From Minisyncoccota bacterium (lineage in GTDB: Bacteria > Patescibacteriota > Minisyncoccia > Phycocordibacterales > UBA9973): 64,000 bases of DNA. The notes under the pieces were generated by a model. It was given only the letters and a program-made list of their open reading frames with translations, did not search any database and was not told the origin of the DNA. Positions within the stretch are counted from its first letter, which is position 1; every line of letters starts with the position of its first letter. This document shows positions 25,949 through 61,717 of this stretch, one piece after another. The stretch is from NCBI GenBank assembly GCA_041659785.1, contig JBAZXO010000001.1, positions 86,941-150,940 on the forward strand, written 5' to 3'. A program made the position numbers and the translations under genes.

Positions 25949-27040
25949 TCATTTATCCACAGAAATTATCTTAACTAGTGCCAGCTCAAGCGGAAGTTCG
26001 GCGATAAAAGTATTATCCATATTTTGATATGCTTCAAGCAACACAGCCAACGTAGAAGAAGTAAATAAATGGCCGTCTTTGCCTGCCCCGTTTGAAGCCG
26101 AAAGCTTTCGTTCGGGGTCTTCCTTTATCAATGCCTTAAGAAATGCTAAATCTTCTTCGCCTAAATCCCCTGCCATATCCTTTTCTAATTTCGGAGCATA
26201 ACGCAAGATTATTGCCATTCGGAATTTCTGGATGATGAGCTTGAAATATAATTTCATATCTAAATTTGATTCTGATGCAATTCGCACAGCAGTGATTCCT
26301 TTTTCTAAATCTTTCTCTGCGATTGCACTTATAAAATCATTTACGAGGGTCGTCTTCGGTGCGCCAGTTATCTTCTCTATATCTTCTCTCTCAATCTTTT
26401 TACTCTTTTTGTCTTTACTGGAGAAATTTAAAACTTTCTGAAGCTCACCTAGGCCGTCACGATATGAACCATCTGCAAGGATAGCGAGGAGCTCGGCTGC
26501 ATCCTTTTCTAAATCATAACCTTCTTCCTTCGCAACGTATAAAATTATATTCTTTAACATGAGCTCGGAAGCCTTTTTGAAAGTGAAAACCTGGCAACGA
26601 GAAACAATAGTCTCAGGGACTTTATGCAGTTCTGTCGTAGCTAAAATAAAGATGACATGCTTTGGTGGCTCTTCGAGAGTCTTCAAGAGTGCACCCCAGG
26701 CGTCCTTGGAGAGCATGTGTACTTCATCTATGATGTAAACTTTGTATTTCGAATCGAATGGCAACACTCGCACGCCGTCGCGAAGTTCTTTTATATCTTC
26801 AATTCCTCTGTTCGAGGCGGCATCTATCTCATAGAGGTCATTTACTGATACACCTATCTCCTTTGCAAAGATACGGGCTACGGTCGTCTTGCCTGTGCCT
26901 CTACTACCTACGAAAAGGTATGCATGAGAGACCTTATTTGACTCCACAGAGCTTTCTAATACATCTATGATGTGGTCTTGCCCGAAGACTTGATCCCATT
27001 TCTGTGGCCTGTATTTACGATATAAAGCTAAGTCGTGCAT
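25949..27040 (-). CDS. dnaX: DNA polymerase III subunit gamma/tau (short form)
   Basis: LYRKYRPQ, GSRGTGKTT Walker A, IIDEVHMLS and SRCQVF. The start is placed at MHDLALYRK; the ORF track extends it 15 nt further, to 27055. Confidence 0.85.
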   Translation of the reverse strand: MHDLALYRKYRPQKWDQVFGQDHIIDVLESSVESNKVSHAYLFVGSRGTGKTTVARIFAKEIGVSVNDLYEIDAASNRGIEDIKELRDGVRVLPFDSKYKVYIIDEVHMLSKDAWGALLKTLEEPPKHVIFILATTELHKVPETIVSRCQVFTFKKASELMLKNIILYVAKEEGYDLEKDAAELLAILADGSYRDGLGELQKVLNFSSKDKKSKKIEREDIEKITGAPKTTLVNDFISAIAEKDLEKGITAVRIASESNLDMKLYFKLIIQKFRMAIILRYAPKLEKDMAGDLGEEDLAFLKALIKEDPERKLSASNGAGKDGHLFTSSTLAVLLEAYQNMDNTFIAELPLELALVKIISVDK

Positions 27041-27085
27041 CCGATAATTGTACATAAAAAAAACAAAACTAGCAAAATTTTATAA

Positions 27086-27126
27086 GGTCCTCGGTTTCCT
27101 GGGTCCCTATCCCAGCCAGACCATTC
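27086..27126. repeat. copy 1 of a 41-nt GC-rich core element (GGTCCTCGGTTTCCTGGGTCCCTATCCCAGCCAGACCATTC) nested in a 21-bp AT-rich stem (27061-27082 / 27127-27147)
   Basis: 38/41 identical to the reverse complement of 61426-61466. The flanking stems differ between copies, but each is self-complementary. Confidence 0.5.
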
Positions 27127-27275
27127 TAAAATTTTCTAGTTTTGTTTTTTTACTATTTTTGAAATAGTGCTTTTCGCAGGGGTTTTGCGAGTGACGACGA
27201 GCGAACTTCAGGATTTTTTAAGCTTCAAAAAATCCGTACCGAAGAAAAGTAGTTATTTCAAAAATTTAACGAGTT

Positions 27276-28316
27276 TTAAATACTTTTCAAAAATCTTTTT
27301 ATTATTTCTTCTACTTGTTTAGCATTTTCGGTTTCCATTAATTTTACACGGAGTTCTTTTGCCCCCTCGAAGCCATTCACATATGCCTTGAAATGCTTTT
27401 TCATAACTGAGAAATTTTTGTGTTTAGGTTTTGAGAGTTCTTTTTCGAAAACTTCTGTATGCTCCACCATAACTTTCAACTTTTCTTCTAACGAAGGACA
27501 GACCTTCGTTTTTACGAAGGTCTGTCCTTCGTTTTCTTTGTTTTCTATTAAGAAAAACCATGGATTGCCGAAAACTCCTCTTCCTATCATCACCCCATCG
27601 CAGCCGTATTCTAACGCCTTCGCTTCTCCGTCTTCCATACTTGTGATATCTCCATTGCCGATTAGTAAAGTATCTTTGCCACTTTCTTCAATAAGCTTTT
27701 TTACTTTTTTAATATAATCCCAATGAGCAGGAACAAGAGACATCTCTTTTACAGTACGTAGATGAATCGTCAATGCAGAAATGTCCTCTTTTAATAATTC
27801 TGGTATCCATTTATCTATTTCTTCTTTATTGAAGCCGACTCGAGTCTTCACCGATACTGGTATATGCGCACGAGCAGCCTCTATGCCTGCGTGAGCTGCT
27901 TGGATAATCTTCCTCGCTAGCTCTGGAGTCCTGATAAGTGCCGATCCTGCACCTTGCGCTACGACTGATTTATCTGGACAGCCCATATTTATATCTATAC
28001 CGTCGAAGCCAAGGCTAGCGATATACTGGCAAGCCTTTTTCATATTCTCTGGATTAGCACCGAAAACTTGTGCTACGATAGGCCTCTCGTTCTCTGAAAA
28101 TACCAACATGTGGGAGAGTTTCTTCTTGGCGAGCTTATTACACAGACCATCTGCAGCCACGAACTCTGTCCAGAAGACTATCCTGTCTTTGTTTTCTCTA
28201 TTCTTACTGTATTTCGCCAAGATATGACGAAAAGCGATATCAGTGACATCCGACATGGGTGCCAAGCAAAAGAATGGTTTCTTTAATTTTCCCCAAAAAT
28301 TTATTTCATTATTCAT
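27276..28316 (-). CDS. tRNA-dihydrouridine synthase
   Basis: Dus family: CLAPMSDVTD, VAQVFG and DINMGCP motifs. Confidence 0.8.
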   Translation of the reverse strand: MNNEINFWGKLKKPFFCLAPMSDVTDIAFRHILAKYSKNRENKDRIVFWTEFVAADGLCNKLAKKKLSHMLVFSENERPIVAQVFGANPENMKKACQYIASLGFDGIDINMGCPDKSVVAQGAGSALIRTPELARKIIQAAHAGIEAARAHIPVSVKTRVGFNKEEIDKWIPELLKEDISALTIHLRTVKEMSLVPAHWDYIKKVKKLIEESGKDTLLIGNGDITSMEDGEAKALEYGCDGVMIGRGVFGNPWFFLIENKENEGQTFVKTKVCPSLEEKLKVMVEHTEVFEKELSKPKHKNFSVMKKHFKAYVNGFEGAKELRVKLMETENAKQVEEIIKRFLKSI

Positions 28317-39039: not shown

Positions 39040-39195
39040 ATTTTTAAATAAAATGTTCCTTAAATAAATATTAGCAAGGAAAGTATTTTGGTGGTAGCAC
39101 AATGAAAATCTAAATTAAGGAGGTTTTTATCGCGCTACCACCAAAAAACCCTGTAGCTTTGAGGGTGGACGAGATTCCACAACACAGGAGAATAC

Positions 39196-44224: not shown

Positions 44225-44986
44225 TTAAAAAATGGGGATAATTAATGTCAGAGACTCCATCAAACTCTTAGTGGAACTCCCGGGCATACGCAGAAGTTCC
44301 CGAACTTTAAAAATATGTTGAAAGCAAGTTTGTAAATTATTTTGAACATGGAAGGTTCCATCTGAAGGATGGAGTAAAATGGAAAAATCATTTACAAACT
44401 TGTTATGCAAAGAAACTTCCAGCTCATTTAGAAACTTTAAAGCTTTAGCACGGCTTGAGTTTAAAACAATAATTTCATTTCCTTCTTCGTCTTCTTCATC
44501 AGGTGCAGCAATTAATTCTTTAATAAACTCAATCCTATCTCGTAGTGGCATCATGATAAATTTCTCAGCTTCTTTTGTATCTCCCTTCTCACTAGAAAAT
44601 GAAGAAATTAAATAAAACCTAGAAACTAGGGTCCGTAAAAGAGCATTTGCATCTGGTACTATAAGGAAAAAATGGGTATCTTGTATTGGCTCTTCAAACA
44701 TTTTCAATAAGCTATTTTGTGCTTCGAGTAAAAAACTGTTAGCAGAAACAATAAATACCTTTTTCCCTGAGGAAAAACTTTTCTGATTTGCATAAGACTT
44801 TAAATTACGAGCATCTTCGATTTTAAAAGAATCTAGCTGAATATGAACAAAGTCTGGATTACCGACAGTGTCTATCCCTAAACTTTTTAAAAATTCTATA
44901 ATCTCAAGAGAAACAACATCACTCACCCCTTCTATCAAATATGCGTGATGCAAATTATTTTTATCTAAGTGTTGTGAAATATTCAT
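44225..44986 (-). CDS. holB: DNA polymerase III delta-prime-like subunit (clamp-loader AAA+ fold without Walker A)
   Basis: HAYLIEG, LLKMFEEP and RTLVSRF motifs. The start was moved to the internal Met, because the ORF-track extension is encoded by the GC palindrome. Confidence 0.6.
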   Translation of the reverse strand: MNISQHLDKNNLHHAYLIEGVSDVVSLEIIEFLKSLGIDTVGNPDFVHIQLDSFKIEDARNLKSYANQKSFSSGKKVFIVSANSFLLEAQNSLLKMFEEPIQDTHFFLIVPDANALLRTLVSRFYLISSFSSEKGDTKEAEKFIMMPLRDRIEFIKELIAAPDEEDEEGNEIIVLNSSRAKALKFLNELEVSLHNKFVNDFSILLHPSDGTFHVQNNLQTCFQHIFKVRELLRMPGSSTKSLMESLTLIIPIF

Positions 44987-44995
44987 CGATTTTGT

Positions 44996-45038
44996 GTCGG
45001 ACGTCCAACGTCTAGAATTCGGACGTTGGACGTCCGAC
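44996..45038. repeat. perfect 17-bp GC-rich inverted repeat (GTCGGACGTCCAACGTC / GACGTTGGACGTCCGAC) with a 9-nt spacer containing GAATTC
   Basis: Arms at 44996-45012 and 45022-45038 are exact reverse complements. The repeat lies immediately 3' of the mreB stop. Confidence 0.6.
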
Positions 45039-45042
45039 AAGA

Positions 45043-48570: not shown

Positions 48571-49257
48571 GGCGACGATTACAGTAAATTCCCCTCTTTG
48601 TTTATCAGGATTTTTATTAAAATATTCCAAAACTTCTACTGGTGTCCCAGTTACGAATTCTTCATAAATTTTTGTTAACTCTCTCGCAACACAGACCTTC
48701 TTCTGATTCTCTTTGGGACAAAATTTCACAAGTGACTCTAATGTTTTTAAAATTCGATGAGGAGACTCATAGAAAACCATCGTCCTTTTAGCATCTCTAA
48801 TTTCTTTAAATAAAGTTTCTCTTCCCTTTTTATGAGGGAGAAAACCCAGAAAAGTAAATTCATGAGTTGGTAAACCTGAAGCAGAAAGTGCAGTAATGAC
48901 CGCGGAAGCACCCGGTATCGGAATTATATCTACGCTATAGCGTAGATTGATATCTTCTTTAATTTTAGATACAAGCAATGCTCCAGGGTCAGAAATTCCT
49001 GGTGTACCAGCGTCTGACACTAATGCTAAATTTTTACCTTCGCTCAATAATTCAAAAATTTTATCTGTCTTCGCGAGTTTACTCTGAGCGTGATAGCTCA
49101 TCGTCGATTTATCGATATTGTATTTTTGCAAAATCTTTTTAGTAACTCTCGTATCTTCGCACAATATCAAATCGACATCCTTTAGGGTCTCAATAGCCCT
49201 GAATGTAATATCTCCCATATTTCCTATTGGCGTCGCAACTACATAAAATTTACCCAT
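48568..49257 (-). CDS. rsmI: 16S rRNA (cytidine1402-2'-O)-methyltransferase
   Basis: MGKFYVVATPIGNMGDITFRAIETLKDVDLILCEDTR is the RsmI/tetrapyrrole-methylase family signature. Confidence 0.85.
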   Translation of the reverse strand: MGKFYVVATPIGNMGDITFRAIETLKDVDLILCEDTRVTKKILQKYNIDKSTMSYHAQSKLAKTDKIFELLSEGKNLALVSDAGTPGISDPGALLVSKIKEDINLRYSVDIIPIPGASAVITALSASGLPTHEFTFLGFLPHKKGRETLFKEIRDAKRTMVFYESPHRILKTLESLVKFCPKENQKKVCVARELTKIYEEFVTGTPVEVLEYFNKNPDKQRGEFTVIVA

Positions 49258-49350
49258 ACACTTATTTTTTAATTATATTATATAAAGCTAAATTAAACAA
49301 TTGAGAAAATAAGTGTGTGGGTTTAGACATTATGTTTATGATTTTAGCAT

Positions 49351-52020: not shown

Positions 52021-52983
52021 TTAACCGACTGATGTCATCCCTGCACTTATCTCTGATATCTCCCTCGTAATGTTCGCTTGTCTGGCTTTATTGAACATTA
52101 GAGTTAGGTCATCGATCATCTCTCCGGAAGCATCACTTGCATTTTTCATTGCTATCATTCTGGATGATTGCTCTGATGCGTTTGATTCGAGAATCATCTG
52201 ATATATTTGCATCCTTGTGAGTTTCTCAGCTAATGATTCTATCAATGTATTAAAATCTCCTTCAAATAAATAATCTATTGATTTTTCTCCAGACGTTCCT
52301 CGTCCGGAATCCGGACGAGGAACGTCTGGAGATTTTTCTGGCTCTAAAGAATCTATAACTTCTTTTAAACTATCTTTAGATATGGGCAAAATTTGTTTTA
52401 TGTTTGGTCTCTGAGTAAGGGCTGAAATAAAATCTGTGTAAGCAAATAAAACTTTATTATAATTCGCAGTACTGTATTCATCTATTGCCAACTTTGATAT
52501 TGGGAGGACATCAGAAAGAGAGATGTTATCTGGTAATTCTGTAAAGCTAGCAATGATTTTCCTACCAAGGCGACGCATAGACATATCACCCTTTTTACCG
52601 ATTGTTACAAAATCTATATTTATATTATTATTGCTTGCCCCACCATGGCGTGGGTCAAGCTTCAATAAAGAAATAACTTTTTTGATAACTTGAGCGTTGT
52701 AAGCACCACAAAGTCCACGATTGGAAGTAATAAGTATAACTAAAATATTTTCATGACTGTCTTTCTTCTCGCGTTCTAAGAAAAGTGGATGTGTAGACTC
52801 CTCTAAATTTTTAGCAATGGATGTCAAAATTTCCCAAGAATATCCGGCATACAAACGCGAAGCCAAAGTGGAAGATACGGCCCTCTTCATCTTGGAAGCA
52901 GCCACAAGCTCCATCGCCTTGGTGATTTTCTTTGTGTTCTTTACACTTTTTATTCTTCTTTTAATTTCTTTTGTCCCTGCCAT
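52021..52983 (-). CDS. atpG: F1Fo ATP synthase gamma subunit
   Basis: KEIKRRIKSVKNTKKITKAMELVAASKMKRA N-terminus and conserved C-terminal helix. Confidence 0.9.
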   Translation of the reverse strand: MAGTKEIKRRIKSVKNTKKITKAMELVAASKMKRAVSSTLASRLYAGYSWEILTSIAKNLEESTHPLFLEREKKDSHENILVILITSNRGLCGAYNAQVIKKVISLLKLDPRHGGASNNNINIDFVTIGKKGDMSMRRLGRKIIASFTELPDNISLSDVLPISKLAIDEYSTANYNKVLFAYTDFISALTQRPNIKQILPISKDSLKEVIDSLEPEKSPDVPRPDSGRGTSGEKSIDYLFEGDFNTLIESLAEKLTRMQIYQMILESNASEQSSRMIAMKNASDASGEMIDDLTLMFNKARQANITREISEISAGMTSVG

Positions 52984-58582: not shown

Positions 58583-58864
58583 CTAAAACAACTGCGAGTG
58601 AGAGCCAATATCAACTAATATTAGAATTAAATTTTCTTTTTCTATTTTATAAATTAGAAGTAAATCCCCTTGGATATAACATTCTCGACAATCAGAGAAT
58701 TCTCCACTTAATTTGTGATCTTTATATATAAGTGGCAAATTCTTACCAATTGCAAGATAGTCTATAACAAACCCCAAATCTTTTAAAACAGATTTTTTCG
58801 CTCCAGAATTTCTAATCTTTTTAAAAGACTTTTCAAAAGATTTTGTCTTTTTTATCAAATACAT
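58583..58864 (-). CDS. yafQ: YafQ/RelE-family type II toxin (mRNA interferase)
   Basis: DH.L.G....RECYIQGDLLLIYKIEKENLILILVDIGSHSQLF matches the YafQ C-terminal signature. Confidence 0.75.
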   Translation of the reverse strand: MYLIKKTKSFEKSFKKIRNSGAKKSVLKDLGFVIDYLAIGKNLPLIYKDHKLSGEFSDCRECYIQGDLLLIYKIEKENLILILVDIGSHSQLF

Positions 58865-60397: not shown

Positions 60398-61393
60398 TTA
60401 TTCTTCATCTTCATCTTCCGCCCCTGAATTGGCGGACAAGCCCACTACTCCAGAATCCAAATCTTTTATTATTTCTTCTATTCCTCCTTCTAAAATTTTA
60501 GGTAGATTATGCCAAGACTTTTTGATGCGATGATCTGTCACACGGTCTTGAGAAAAGTTGTAAGTACGAATTTTCTCAGAACGGTCACCAGTACCTATCT
60601 GATTCTTTCTCTCACCAGCATATTTACTTGCTTCTTTTTCTTCTTCAAGCTGTTGTAGTTTCGCGGTCAAAATCATCATCGCTTGTTCACGGTTTGCGAG
60701 CTGACTTCTTTCATTTGTAGAACGCACATCGAGCCCTGTAGGCTTGTGAATTATGCGCACAGCAGTCTCAACCTTGTTCACATTTTGTCCGCCCTTACCA
60801 CCAGAACGAGAATACTCCATTTCGAAGTCAGCTGGGTTTATTATAAAAGTTATTTTCTTCTTAATTGGAAGCACTGCTACAGATGCCGTAGATGTATGCA
60901 CTCGGCCATTCTTCTCAGTTGCGGGAATTCTCTGCACTCGGTGCACGCCTGTCTCATAACGCATTTTCTTATAAACATCCTTACCCTTTATCTCAAAGCT
61001 CGCCTCTTTGTAACCATTAAGGTCACTCTTATTTTCATAATTTACTTTCCACTGCCAGTGTTGCATCTCAGCAAACTTCTCATACATATGAGCGAGCTCC
61101 CAAGCGAAAAGCGAAGCTTCGTCTCCGCCAGCTCCTGCACGCACCTCGAGAACTATTTCATTAGGAAATTCTTCAGCCTCTTTATCTTTATCTAAAATTT
61201 CTTGTACCTGTTTCTCTATTCTCTCTCTTTCTTCTTGAATAAATTTTAGTTCTTTAGCTGCCATCTCATGGAGAGAGTCATCGCTCGCAAGCATCTCGCG
61301 AACTTCTGCTTCTTCACGAAAAAGTTTCTCCAAAATACTCGCCAAGTAGCTCGTATTGTGATTCTTTTTAAGTTCTTCTATGTCTAGGCTCAT
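60398..61393 (-). CDS. prfA: peptide chain release factor 1
   Basis: GGQ motif (SGGKGGQNVNK) and RF1-type PAT tripeptide (RIPATEKNGRVHTS). Confidence 0.9.
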   Translation of the reverse strand: MSLDIEELKKNHNTSYLASILEKLFREEAEVREMLASDDSLHEMAAKELKFIQEERERIEKQVQEILDKDKEAEEFPNEIVLEVRAGAGGDEASLFAWELAHMYEKFAEMQHWQWKVNYENKSDLNGYKEASFEIKGKDVYKKMRYETGVHRVQRIPATEKNGRVHTSTASVAVLPIKKKITFIINPADFEMEYSRSGGKGGQNVNKVETAVRIIHKPTGLDVRSTNERSQLANREQAMMILTAKLQQLEEEKEASKYAGERKNQIGTGDRSEKIRTYNFSQDRVTDHRIKKSWHNLPKILEGGIEEIIKDLDSGVVGLSANSGAEDEDEE

Positions 61394-61425
61394 GTTATTA
61401 AAAAATAAAGTTATATAATTTTTTT

Positions 61426-61466
61426 GAATGGTCTGGCTGGGATAGGGACCCAGAGATCCGAGGACC
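61426..61466. repeat. copy 2 (inverted) of the 41-nt GC-rich core element, nested in an AT-rich stem (61410-61425 / 61467-61487)
   Basis: The reverse complement GGTCCTCGGATCTCTGGGTCCCTATCCCAGCCAGACCATTC matches 27086-27126 at 38/41 positions. It lies between rpmE and prfA. Confidence 0.5.
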
Positions 61467-61498
61467 TGAGAAAAAATTGATATAACTCTATTTTTTAG

Positions 61499-61717
61499 TT
61501 ATTTTTTAGCTTTTACGGTTGCAGCTCGGCGCTTGTTGAATCGTTCTACGCGTCCAGCAGTGTCCATAATCTTTTCATTTCCAGTATAGAAAGGGTGACA
61601 ATGGCTACAAATTTCCATCTTTATATCTCCCATTGTTGAGCCAACTTCAAAAACCGCTCCGCAAGCGCAGGTGGCCTTTGTCTTTAAATCATATTTTGGA
61701 TGTATGCCTTTTTTCAT
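61499..61717 (-). CDS. rpmE: 50S ribosomal protein L31
   Basis: MKKGIHPKY start and Cys motifs (C..C...C.HC) with HPFYTG. Confidence 0.9.

Follow-up and report, generated by a model that had tools for sequence, protein, structure and literature searches.

What is a GC-rich core of 41 nt doing inside long, AT-rich palindromes at two intergenic positions of a single bacterial contig? We addressed this question in a 64,000-nt stretch of a Minisyncoccota genome (GenBank assembly GCA_041659785.1, contig JBAZXO010000001.1, positions 86,941-150,940), which is referred to as the window throughout. An initial annotation had flagged the core, GGTCCTCGGTTTCCTGGGTCCCTATCCCAGCCAGACCATTC, upstream of dnaX and an inverted copy upstream of prfA, and had offered three options: a small noncoding RNA family, a protein-binding DNA site or a miniature repeat. 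We call the core together with its enclosing arms element A (coordinates in Table 1). Both copies in the window are ordinary intergenic representatives of a palindromic insertion family that runs through the clade, and the miniature repeat is the one option of the three that the evidence supports. Element A is probably a dispersed miniature palindromic insertion element that operates at the DNA level and is selfish or near-neutral, and is neither an RNA gene nor a regulator of dnaX or prfA.

Two copies of a palindromic element in the window

Direct reading and a pattern search confirmed both cores, which are identical at 38 of 41 positions; the three differences all fall within TTTCC/ATCTC, the region of a 4-nt bulge. 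The 37-nt pattern, searched with up to three mismatches, occurs at these two sites only, and no occurrence is expected (100 shuffles). The inverted repeats that enclose the cores are the two longest of the window. Their arms lie at 27057-27089 and 27119-27151 in copy 1 and at 61399-61425 and 61471-61497 in copy 2, so the AT-rich, self-complementary stem described earlier is present, but the 21 bp given for it was too short. From either strand, each copy is predicted to fold into a single long hairpin (-32.6 to -39.2 kcal/mol; z of -5.3 to -8.5), a stability matched by 0 of 200 shuffles. The repeat is thus real and structured rather than a product of chance, as shuffles reach neither the pattern hits nor the fold energy.

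In the predicted fold of the copy 1 core, GGTC pairs with GACC (P1), GG with CC (P2) and CTGGG with CCCAG (P3), leaving a 7-nt loop and the variable 4-nt bulge; the internal pairings GGTC/GACC and TGGG/CCCA noted at the outset are among these. One bulged C interrupts the left arm of each copy (27073 on the plus strand in copy 1, 61479 on the minus strand in copy 2). A covariance model built from 65 copies of the family found copies 1 and 2 alone in the window, at ~101 bits each, followed by the opposite strands of the same copies (22 bits) and a generic hairpin (18.5 bits). Three other inverted repeats of the window with loops of 37-42 nt (58764-58855, 44325-44402 and 49252-49322) were compared with the core and are unrelated to it.

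Both copies are intergenic and lie between co-directional genes, and the neighbouring strands are corrected here: the minus strand carries all four of dnaX, dus, prfA and rpmE. Copy 1 lies 16 nt upstream of the dnaX ATG (27040), in the dus-dnaX spacer, and is antisense to both genes, while copy 2 makes up the entire spacer between the rpmE stop (61499) and the prfA ATG (61393) and is sense to both, so that the opposite directions reported for the two copies hold. No tRNA-like gene is predicted at either site. The DnaX protein is 100% identical to a protein (P0001) of a Candidatus Paceibacterota metagenome-assembled genome (MAG), which assigns the source genome, with a GC content of ~36%, to the candidate phyla radiation (CPR)/Patescibacteria; an exact-protein look-up of PrfA returned no record.

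A family confined to one clade of Patescibacteria

We scanned one genome per species from 185,579 species for the pattern CTGGGNCCCNNNCCCAGCCAGACC, which has 20 specified bases and for which we estimate, from the size of the collection, about one match by chance. The scan returned 57 matches in 55 loci, with at most four copies per genome, and every match fell in a Patescibacteria MAG (Nomurabacteria, Paceibacterota and a few labelled Saccharibacteria). Applied to the genome loci, the covariance model recovered 61 full copies and four subfamily copies (59 sources), and KsgA loci that had been sampled independently (443 kb) gave 15 matches to it. Members of the family occur only in a Nomurabacteria/Paceibacterota clade of Patescibacteria, and with so many further copies the concern that the two window sequences might stand by themselves, with no conservation in relatives, falls away.

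Viral contigs yielded no match to the strict pattern and none to the covariance model. A looser, gapped pattern gave 35 viral matches, a number close to a rough chance estimate, and none of them fits the covariance model; a phage origin was set aside. A composite query for the encoded peptide found no candidates in a protein database, and searches of full-text articles turned up no account of such elements in CPR, Patescibacteria, Parcubacteria or Nomurabacteria.

Conserved core, conserved termini and site-specific arms

Element A measures 71-120 nt (median 93) across 61 copies, with arms of 13-32 Watson-Crick base pairs (median 24), and consists of three layers. The first is an asymmetric, GC-rich and almost invariant core of 37 nt, GGTCCTCGG-wtyy-CTGGGTCCCTnnCCCAGCCAGACC, for which the helices GGTC/GACC, GG/CC and CTGGG/CCCAG are predicted across the family. 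Variation in the core is limited to the 4-nt bulge and two or three loop positions; a T-A pair of the apical helix is replaced by C-G (UA to CG) in six copies, and no copy has a broken pair. In the second layer, a run of five T followed by the linker (y)TCA borders the core 5', and the linker ATTC followed by a run of five A borders it 3'. Joined to the ends of the core, these make up the termini TTTTT-yTCA-GGTC and GACC-ATTC-AAAAA, which together form a ~13-nt imperfect inverted repeat that is found in all copies and also in subfamilies with other interiors. Such subfamilies keep the termini and GGTCCTCGG...CCAGACC and exchange the apical hairpin, with the apex GGTCCTCGGAAAAAATCCCCAGACC in three loci (L023, L010 and L041) and other apices in three more (L115, L095 and L090).

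The third layer, the outer 8-20 bp of the arms, is unrelated between sites yet complementary within each copy. In a model-based alignment of 65 copies, 93.9% of cells are paired, compared with 67.4% in shuffles, and the covariation score is 0.585 against 0.116, a value reached by 0 of 500 shuffles. Changes on both sides are seen in 21 of 23 arm pairs, and an ungapped alignment agrees. The early remark that the stems differ between copies and nevertheless remain self-complementary, made from two copies, therefore extends to the whole family.

In-frame copies within genes

Copies within long open reading frames (ORFs) account for 26 of 59 in a first set, each with hundreds of coding bases on both sides, and for 36 of 71 when the KsgA loci are included. 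All 36 are in frame and free of stop codons, and they occur in both orientations, in five of the six reading frames and in at least 11 different genes. The hosts, named from conserved motifs or homology, include the CCA-adding enzyme (7 genomes), TsaD (3), IscS (3) and MnmA (2), in addition to KsgA, a PcrA/UvrD-like helicase, UvrA, UvrB, IleRS and others. Depending on the frame, the encoded peptide is GPRFSGSLSQPDH (the commonest), QVLGSLGPSPSQTI, RSSVPWVPPPARPF, NGLAG.GTQ.TEDL or E(R/W)SGWGRDPE.RG; as read from the sequence, the core is open in five frames, and in all six in a CC loop variant.

Filled and empty sites differ by multiples of three, and the insert adds ~21-29 residues to a loop of the host protein. 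Where orthologues were aligned (KsgA, MnmA and the helicase), the insertion sites correspond to loops of variable length. An AlphaFold2 model of one MnmA protein (P0121), of moderate quality with a mean predicted local distance difference test (pLDDT) score of 71.6, shows residues 130-152, the insert, as a low-confidence loop (pLDDT <50) at the tip of the beta hairpin that strands 126-129 and 154-157 form, a position that the model suggests is permissive and exposed at the surface. Given that frame and freedom from stops are kept, the simplest inference is that the ORF copies are read through and translated.

Filled, empty and inverted sites

The gene order serS-x-dus-dnaX is kept in relatives, and within it the copy upstream of dnaX comes and goes. 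Two loci with 90% DnaX identity (L177 and L178) have it, with unchanged orientation and almost identical arms, and it is missing from L001 (88%), L002 (80%) and L005 (80%), the last of which has a dus-dnaX spacer of 9 nt only. Presence at 90% and absence at 88% and 80% identity point to a lineage-specific insertion and not to a dnaX leader, which agrees with the argument that the initial annotation drew, from the opposite directions of the two copies, against a simple cis-leader; the association of copy 1 with dnaX is incidental. The contig of L177 starts inside element A (positions 1-60), and CPR assemblies seem to break at element A, as at repeats. The rpmE-prfA spacer is also filled in L015, L027, L037 and L040, where the core is nearly invariant and the arms show compensatory changes (arm pairs gttcta/tagaac, gctata/tatagc and gccaata/tattggc).

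Sites within genes are equally variable. The helicase loop is empty in L048 and others (a segment of 27-37 residues), holds element A forward in L025 and L047 and in reverse in L044 and L050, and has other content elsewhere: a palindrome of a separate family, C, in L030, A and C side by side in L044, and up to three tandem elements in L088. In KsgA, the loop is empty in most of ~60 readable metagenomic loci and filled by element A forward in five and in reverse in three; in at least ten loci it holds other palindromic families, of which there are at least five. About 30 of 120 MnmA orthologues have the native loop of 13-14 amino acids, and in the rest it is expanded by 13-50 residues, with at least ten families represented. 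The expanded loop of the MnmA orthologues P0121-P0240 lies between ATGHYA and KDQSYFL, and these proteins are 342-431 amino acids long. IscS carries the element forward in one genome and in reverse in two. The same site is thus flipped between genomes in KsgA, the helicase and IscS.

Cores, arms and a proposed mechanism

Core and arms follow different patterns of resemblance. Cores differ at a mean of 3.0 of 44 nt within a genome and at 4.66 between genomes (permutation p<0.0005), and core variants are common to non-orthologous copies of one genome, as in MFUV01, where 4 of 4 copies read GGATTCCTGGGTCCCTCCCCCAG. Arms, by comparison, are alike at orthologous sites of different genomes, with compensatory changes, and at the KsgA site the same arms enclose different cores (L044 and L090). 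In MnmA the right arm encodes the native, conserved K-Y-F-Q-L-R-Q-G-x-D, and the 24 extra residues (72 nt) correspond to the core, the linkers and one arm, which implies that the left arm repeats host sequence in inverted form. The size differences at KsgA (63-66 nt) fit the same arithmetic of a core plus one arm. In the dus-dnaX spacer of L178 (positions 30-60), the B core is absent and the outer arms that belong to element B (a further palindromic family, described below) abut each other (tttgaaatag/tatttcaaa); arms can thus persist when the core is gone, presumably after a central deletion, or they form an empty 'socket'.

If element A is a selfish or near-neutral DNA element, it would insert or survive only in the few permissive places of these very compact genomes, namely short intergenic spacers and length-variable surface loops of proteins. 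The core and termini would then be a putative recognition site of a trans-acting enzyme, or a substrate for conversion between copies. Cores may be copied or converted between hairpin 'sockets' within one genome, and the outer arms may arise or be kept up on the spot, where template switching during replication would copy neighbouring sequence in inverted form, in which case the element would not carry its outer arms from site to site. We put forward this division of labour, with cores copied or converted and arms made or maintained locally, as a tentative hypothesis to which we give somewhat less than an even chance. Also possible, though on balance doubtful, is mobile DNA whose mobile unit would be the GC-rich core with its ~13-nt termini, moved between sockets that would be local inverted duplications or pre-existing palindromes. 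This idea draws on the way that cores follow the genome and arms follow the site, on an arm that can be native coding sequence, on different cores and both orientations within the same arms, and on a socket that survives without its core (L178). Were it true, a hairpin-targeting mechanism would keep reshaping surface loops in the essential proteins of CPR bacteria.

Several observations weigh against a selfish or near-neutral element. Among filled and empty alleles, none share flanks that are >95% identical (the flanks are 70-90% identical), and the borders are therefore approximate. We identified no transposase or other mobilising enzyme in the 8-kb loci that were available. Nor did we see a direct duplication of the target site: what flanks the conserved part is repeated in inverted form, again with approximate borders. 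In the dnaX spacer the whole 94-95 nt, including both arms, is absent from empty relatives, which fits an element that carries its own arms, and the idea of local arms is not general: a rule by which one arm would in every case be native is borne out at MnmA and agrees with the sizes at KsgA but fails here. Translation of the ORF copies is read from the conservation of frame. At orthologous sites the core shows much stronger conservation than the arms, which could mean a function for the host, and neither the orientation bias nor the fixed bulge, both described in the next section, is what a purely neutral DNA palindrome predicts or explains.

Alternative explanations

Of 59 copies that could be oriented, 44 are sense and 15 antisense (25% antisense, or ~3:1 in favour of sense), and in 34 of 65 copies the helix is interrupted by one bulged base, in most cases a C, at a distance of exactly 12 nt on the 5' side of the core. 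This bias and this helix defect at a fixed distance keep alive, at low probability, an RNA hairpin with a host function, which RNase III or a dedicated RNA-binding protein, for example, would bind or process and which would thereby set mRNA stability, processing or translation of neighbouring cistrons, with the core as recognition module and the stem as scaffold. The strong covariation of the stem, the compensatory pair in the core, the near-invariance of the core at orthologous sites where the arms change and the position of intergenic copies exactly between the stop and start codons of co-directional genes are all in keeping with such a role. We consider it unlikely nonetheless. Half of the copies are in essential ORFs, spread over five frames, and there a hairpin of 25 bp or a site of cleavage would do harm; a quarter are antisense, sites are flipped in KsgA, the helicase and IscS, and the two window copies are themselves oppositely oriented to transcription.

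The composition of the arms points the same way. Arm cells comprise 1330 Watson-Crick pairs, 13 G·T, 45 A·C and 85 other mismatches; read in the sense of the transcript, the mismatches are 16 G·U, 35 A·C and 70 others. A stem selected as RNA would be expected to favour G·U over A·C; there is no such surplus here, and although the covariation is very strong, the complementarity looks like the Watson-Crick kind that a DNA palindrome predicts. Rfam gave no hit at the gathering threshold over the whole window; at E<=10, both loci had only weak matches of the AT-rich stem to microRNA-precursor and small nucleolar RNA models, which are eukaryotic and lie far below gathering scores (best E-value 0.0027), so neither locus belongs to an Rfam family. 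With no Rfam match, 36 of 71 copies in ORFs, no G·U enrichment and the dnaX copy missing from near relatives, the noncoding RNA family proposed initially is not sustained. Signal recognition particle (SRP) RNA was considered separately. The gene ffs lies upstream of dnaX in many bacteria; here, neither strand has the GGAA/AGCA motifs of domain IV, and the Rfam SRP models have no match. A hammerhead-like reading of the reverse core (CUGG...GAAAC) was likewise discarded, with an incomplete CUGANGA box and no Rfam match.

Host function could also reside in the DNA itself, as a protein-bound core or a cruciform that would serve chromosome organisation, replication, repair or DNA uptake and be selected wherever it is tolerated. 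Independence of orientation, arm complementarity of the Watson-Crick type only, strict conservation of the core across the clade and the palindrome GGGTCCC read at the core apex would all suit a DNA site. We find this quite improbable, as the element is gained and lost between close relatives, palindromic families unrelated to it can take its place at a given position, the apical GGGTCCC hairpin is missing altogether from subfamilies, and copies are not regularly spaced, the 64 kb of the window holding only two.

A mini-intron or bypass element, in which the insert would be cut from the mRNA with re-ligation or skipped by the ribosome as in phage T4 gene 60 or the yeast mitochondrial 'byp' elements, is very unlikely. 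The long stem does juxtapose the borders of the insert in every copy, and inserts do occur in essential genes; but all 36 coding copies are in frame and stop-free despite their AT-rich arms, which would be needless if they were excised or bypassed. The open frames of the core, five of them in use, the size differences from empty sites in multiples of three and the predicted location of the insert at a tolerant loop tip speak against it as well.

Bidirectional intrinsic terminators, or hairpins that share a loop by chance, are scarcely credible: an A-run before and a T-run after each hairpin and the location of both window copies between co-directional genes would suit terminators, which have short GC-rich stems, but the stems here are AT-rich and ~25 bp long (13-32) with a 45-nt apical domain, the 37-nt core recurs at least 61 times across species, half of the copies are inside ORFs, and the shuffles exclude chance; as a sufficient explanation, this reading is already refuted.

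Other palindromic families and features of the window

The spacer that holds copy 1 also holds element B, a palindrome of the same design that adjoins it (Table 1). Its conserved core of two hairpins (~27170-27249) has the form GGGGTTT-[hairpin]-ACTTCAGGATTTTTTAAGCTTCAAAAAATCCGTACC and is enclosed by site-specific arms of 20-25 bp. By BLASTN it is multi-copy, with matches in L049, L017, L041, L060, L053, L021 and L001-L004; in L001-L004 it occupies the dus-dnaX spacer, and in L001 it is inverted relative to dnaX.

Family C has a GC-rich core of ~60 nt, TCTCTCGCAGGCGGACGCGCCGAGAGGGAGCGCTGTGCGAGCACGCACAGACAGCGA, within arms of its own (L030, 6572-6642; L044, 862-925). It is in frame in the helicase loop, in opposite orientations in L030 and L044. 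A peptide resembling that of family C, ...ALPLGPSACETP... (...ALPLGSSACETP... in the L044 helicase), also occurs in four MnmA orthologues (P0168, P0178, P0198 and P0211). In the KsgA ORF of L050 (MFUV01000005), further apparent inserts, ...KVYLAGAGQGLVI... and ...SVLPPPPRKSNWAPPPYQGGGSKEVQGKTLNS..., are found beside element A, which indicates that one protein can carry multiple insertions.

Elsewhere in the window, the dus ORF contains a perfect palindrome of 20 bp with a 4-nt loop (27490-27533), in frame and encoding NEGQTFVKTKVCPSL, which may be another kind of in-frame palindromic insert. Two GC-rich perfect palindromes, at 52286-52332 (23-bp arms) and 44995-45039 (18-bp arms), are in frame in minus-strand ORFs of 321 and 274 amino acids, where they encode SPDVPRPDSGRGTSGE and LSDVQRPNSRRWTSDT, respectively; both contain a GGACG motif. 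An inverted repeat of 29 nt at 39083-39149 (GTATTTTGGTGGTAGCAC...GCGCTACCACCAAAAAAC) is 83% complementary with a gap of 9 nt, and no ORF spans it.

Table 1 Positions of element A, element B and neighbouring genes in the window
Feature	Position	Strand	Basis
Element A copy 1, whole	27057..27151	+	Inverted repeat; hairpin of -36/-39 kcal/mol; covariance model, 101.5 bits at 27059-27151
Copy 1 5' arm, AT-rich, with bulged C 27073 and inner T-run	27057..27085	+	Sequence; inverted repeat
Copy 1 core, 37-nt GGTCC...AGACC plus linker ATTC	27086..27126	+	Sequence; pattern search; fold
Copy 1 3' arm	27127..27151	+	Sequence; inverted repeat
Element A copy 2, whole	61399..61497	-	Inverted repeat; covariance model, 101 bits
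Copy 2 core	61426..61466	-	38/41 identical to copy 1 core
Element B, second palindromic family, adjoining copy 1 in the dus-dnaX spacer	27155..27265		BLASTN; folds; alignment
dnaX, DNA polymerase III gamma/tau subunit (context)	25949..27040	-	Protein match P0001, 100% identical
dus, tRNA dihydrouridine synthase (context)	27276..28316	-	Pfam Dus in syntenic loci
prfA, peptide chain release factor 1 (context)	60398..61393	-	Named from translation and initial annotation
rpmE, ribosomal protein L31 (context)	61499..61717	-	Named from translation

Comparison with known systems

Mobile GC-rich palindromic clusters and the 'byp' elements are known from yeast mitochondrial genes, and like element A they are GC-rich hairpins that have entered coding sequence in compact, AT-rich genomes. 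The ribosome skips over byps, which do not require a frame, whereas the coding copies of element A are all in frame and stop-free. Template-switch mutations, in which one event copies adjacent sequence in inverted form and so makes a perfect stem (PMC10710096), are the simplest known route to site-specific arms of which one is host sequence, as at MnmA, but they leave unexplained the recurrence of a conserved 37-nt core at many sites and in many species. The opposition of site-specific arms and genome-specific cores would give a concrete handle for finding the mobilising mechanism.

REP sequences and REPINs, associated with the RAYT (TnpA-REP) protein, share with element A hairpin repeats recognised as a structure plus a short motif, helix imperfections at fixed positions and homogeneity of copies within a genome. 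REPs, however, are extragenic and much shorter, whereas half of the element A copies are intragenic, and their GTAG/CTAC motif is absent from element A. The pattern of conservation is also the reverse: REPIN arms are conserved and the loop is variable, and in element A the core is conserved and the arms are variable.

Bacterial MITEs (miniature transposable elements with inverted repeats), such as Correia/CREE, ERIC, RUP, BOX and others (reviewed in PMC10969869 and PMC3184786), resemble element A in being small, non-autonomous and multi-copy, with terminal inverted repeats and hairpin potential, in having subfamilies with common termini and different interiors, and in occasional in-frame fusions to host ORFs. 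Element A differs in its flanks, which are inverted and show no direct target-site duplication, in a far higher intragenic share, and in that no parent insertion sequence with matching termini was found for it in the 8-kb loci.

By description, the closest analogue is the Rickettsia palindromic element (RPE), of which ten families, RPE-1 to RPE-10, were reportedly described by Ogata et al. in 2000 and 2002. In-frame palindromic 'selfish' repeats are best known from Rickettsia, and RPE families are each defined by whole-length homology. As small palindromic repeats of several families in a reduced genome, with nearly half of the copies in frame in unrelated genes (PMC10969869), RPEs parallel element A in most respects: both are small (~100-150 bp), dispersed palindromic repeats of reduced, AT-rich, gene-dense genomes in which several families coexist, both have about half of their copies in frame in unrelated housekeeping genes, where the fold tolerates them, and no associated transposase is known for either. 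The host phylum is different, however, as all matches here are from Patescibacteria and none from Rickettsiales. Homology does not extend over the whole length of element A, in which only the core and the ~13-nt termini are conserved and the outer arms are site-specific; element A also uses five frames and both orientations, and at orthologous sites it flips, and different cores share the same arms.

An analogous system of different architecture in the CPR would show that hairpin DNA invades essential genes repeatedly as genomes become reduced, and that this is no rickettsial oddity. It would explain part of the unusual length variation and the 'extra loops' seen in housekeeping proteins of the CPR, as well as the breaks of contigs in CPR assemblies, and it would warn those who annotate these genomes or look for RNA motifs in them that a hairpin with strong covariation can be a DNA palindrome.

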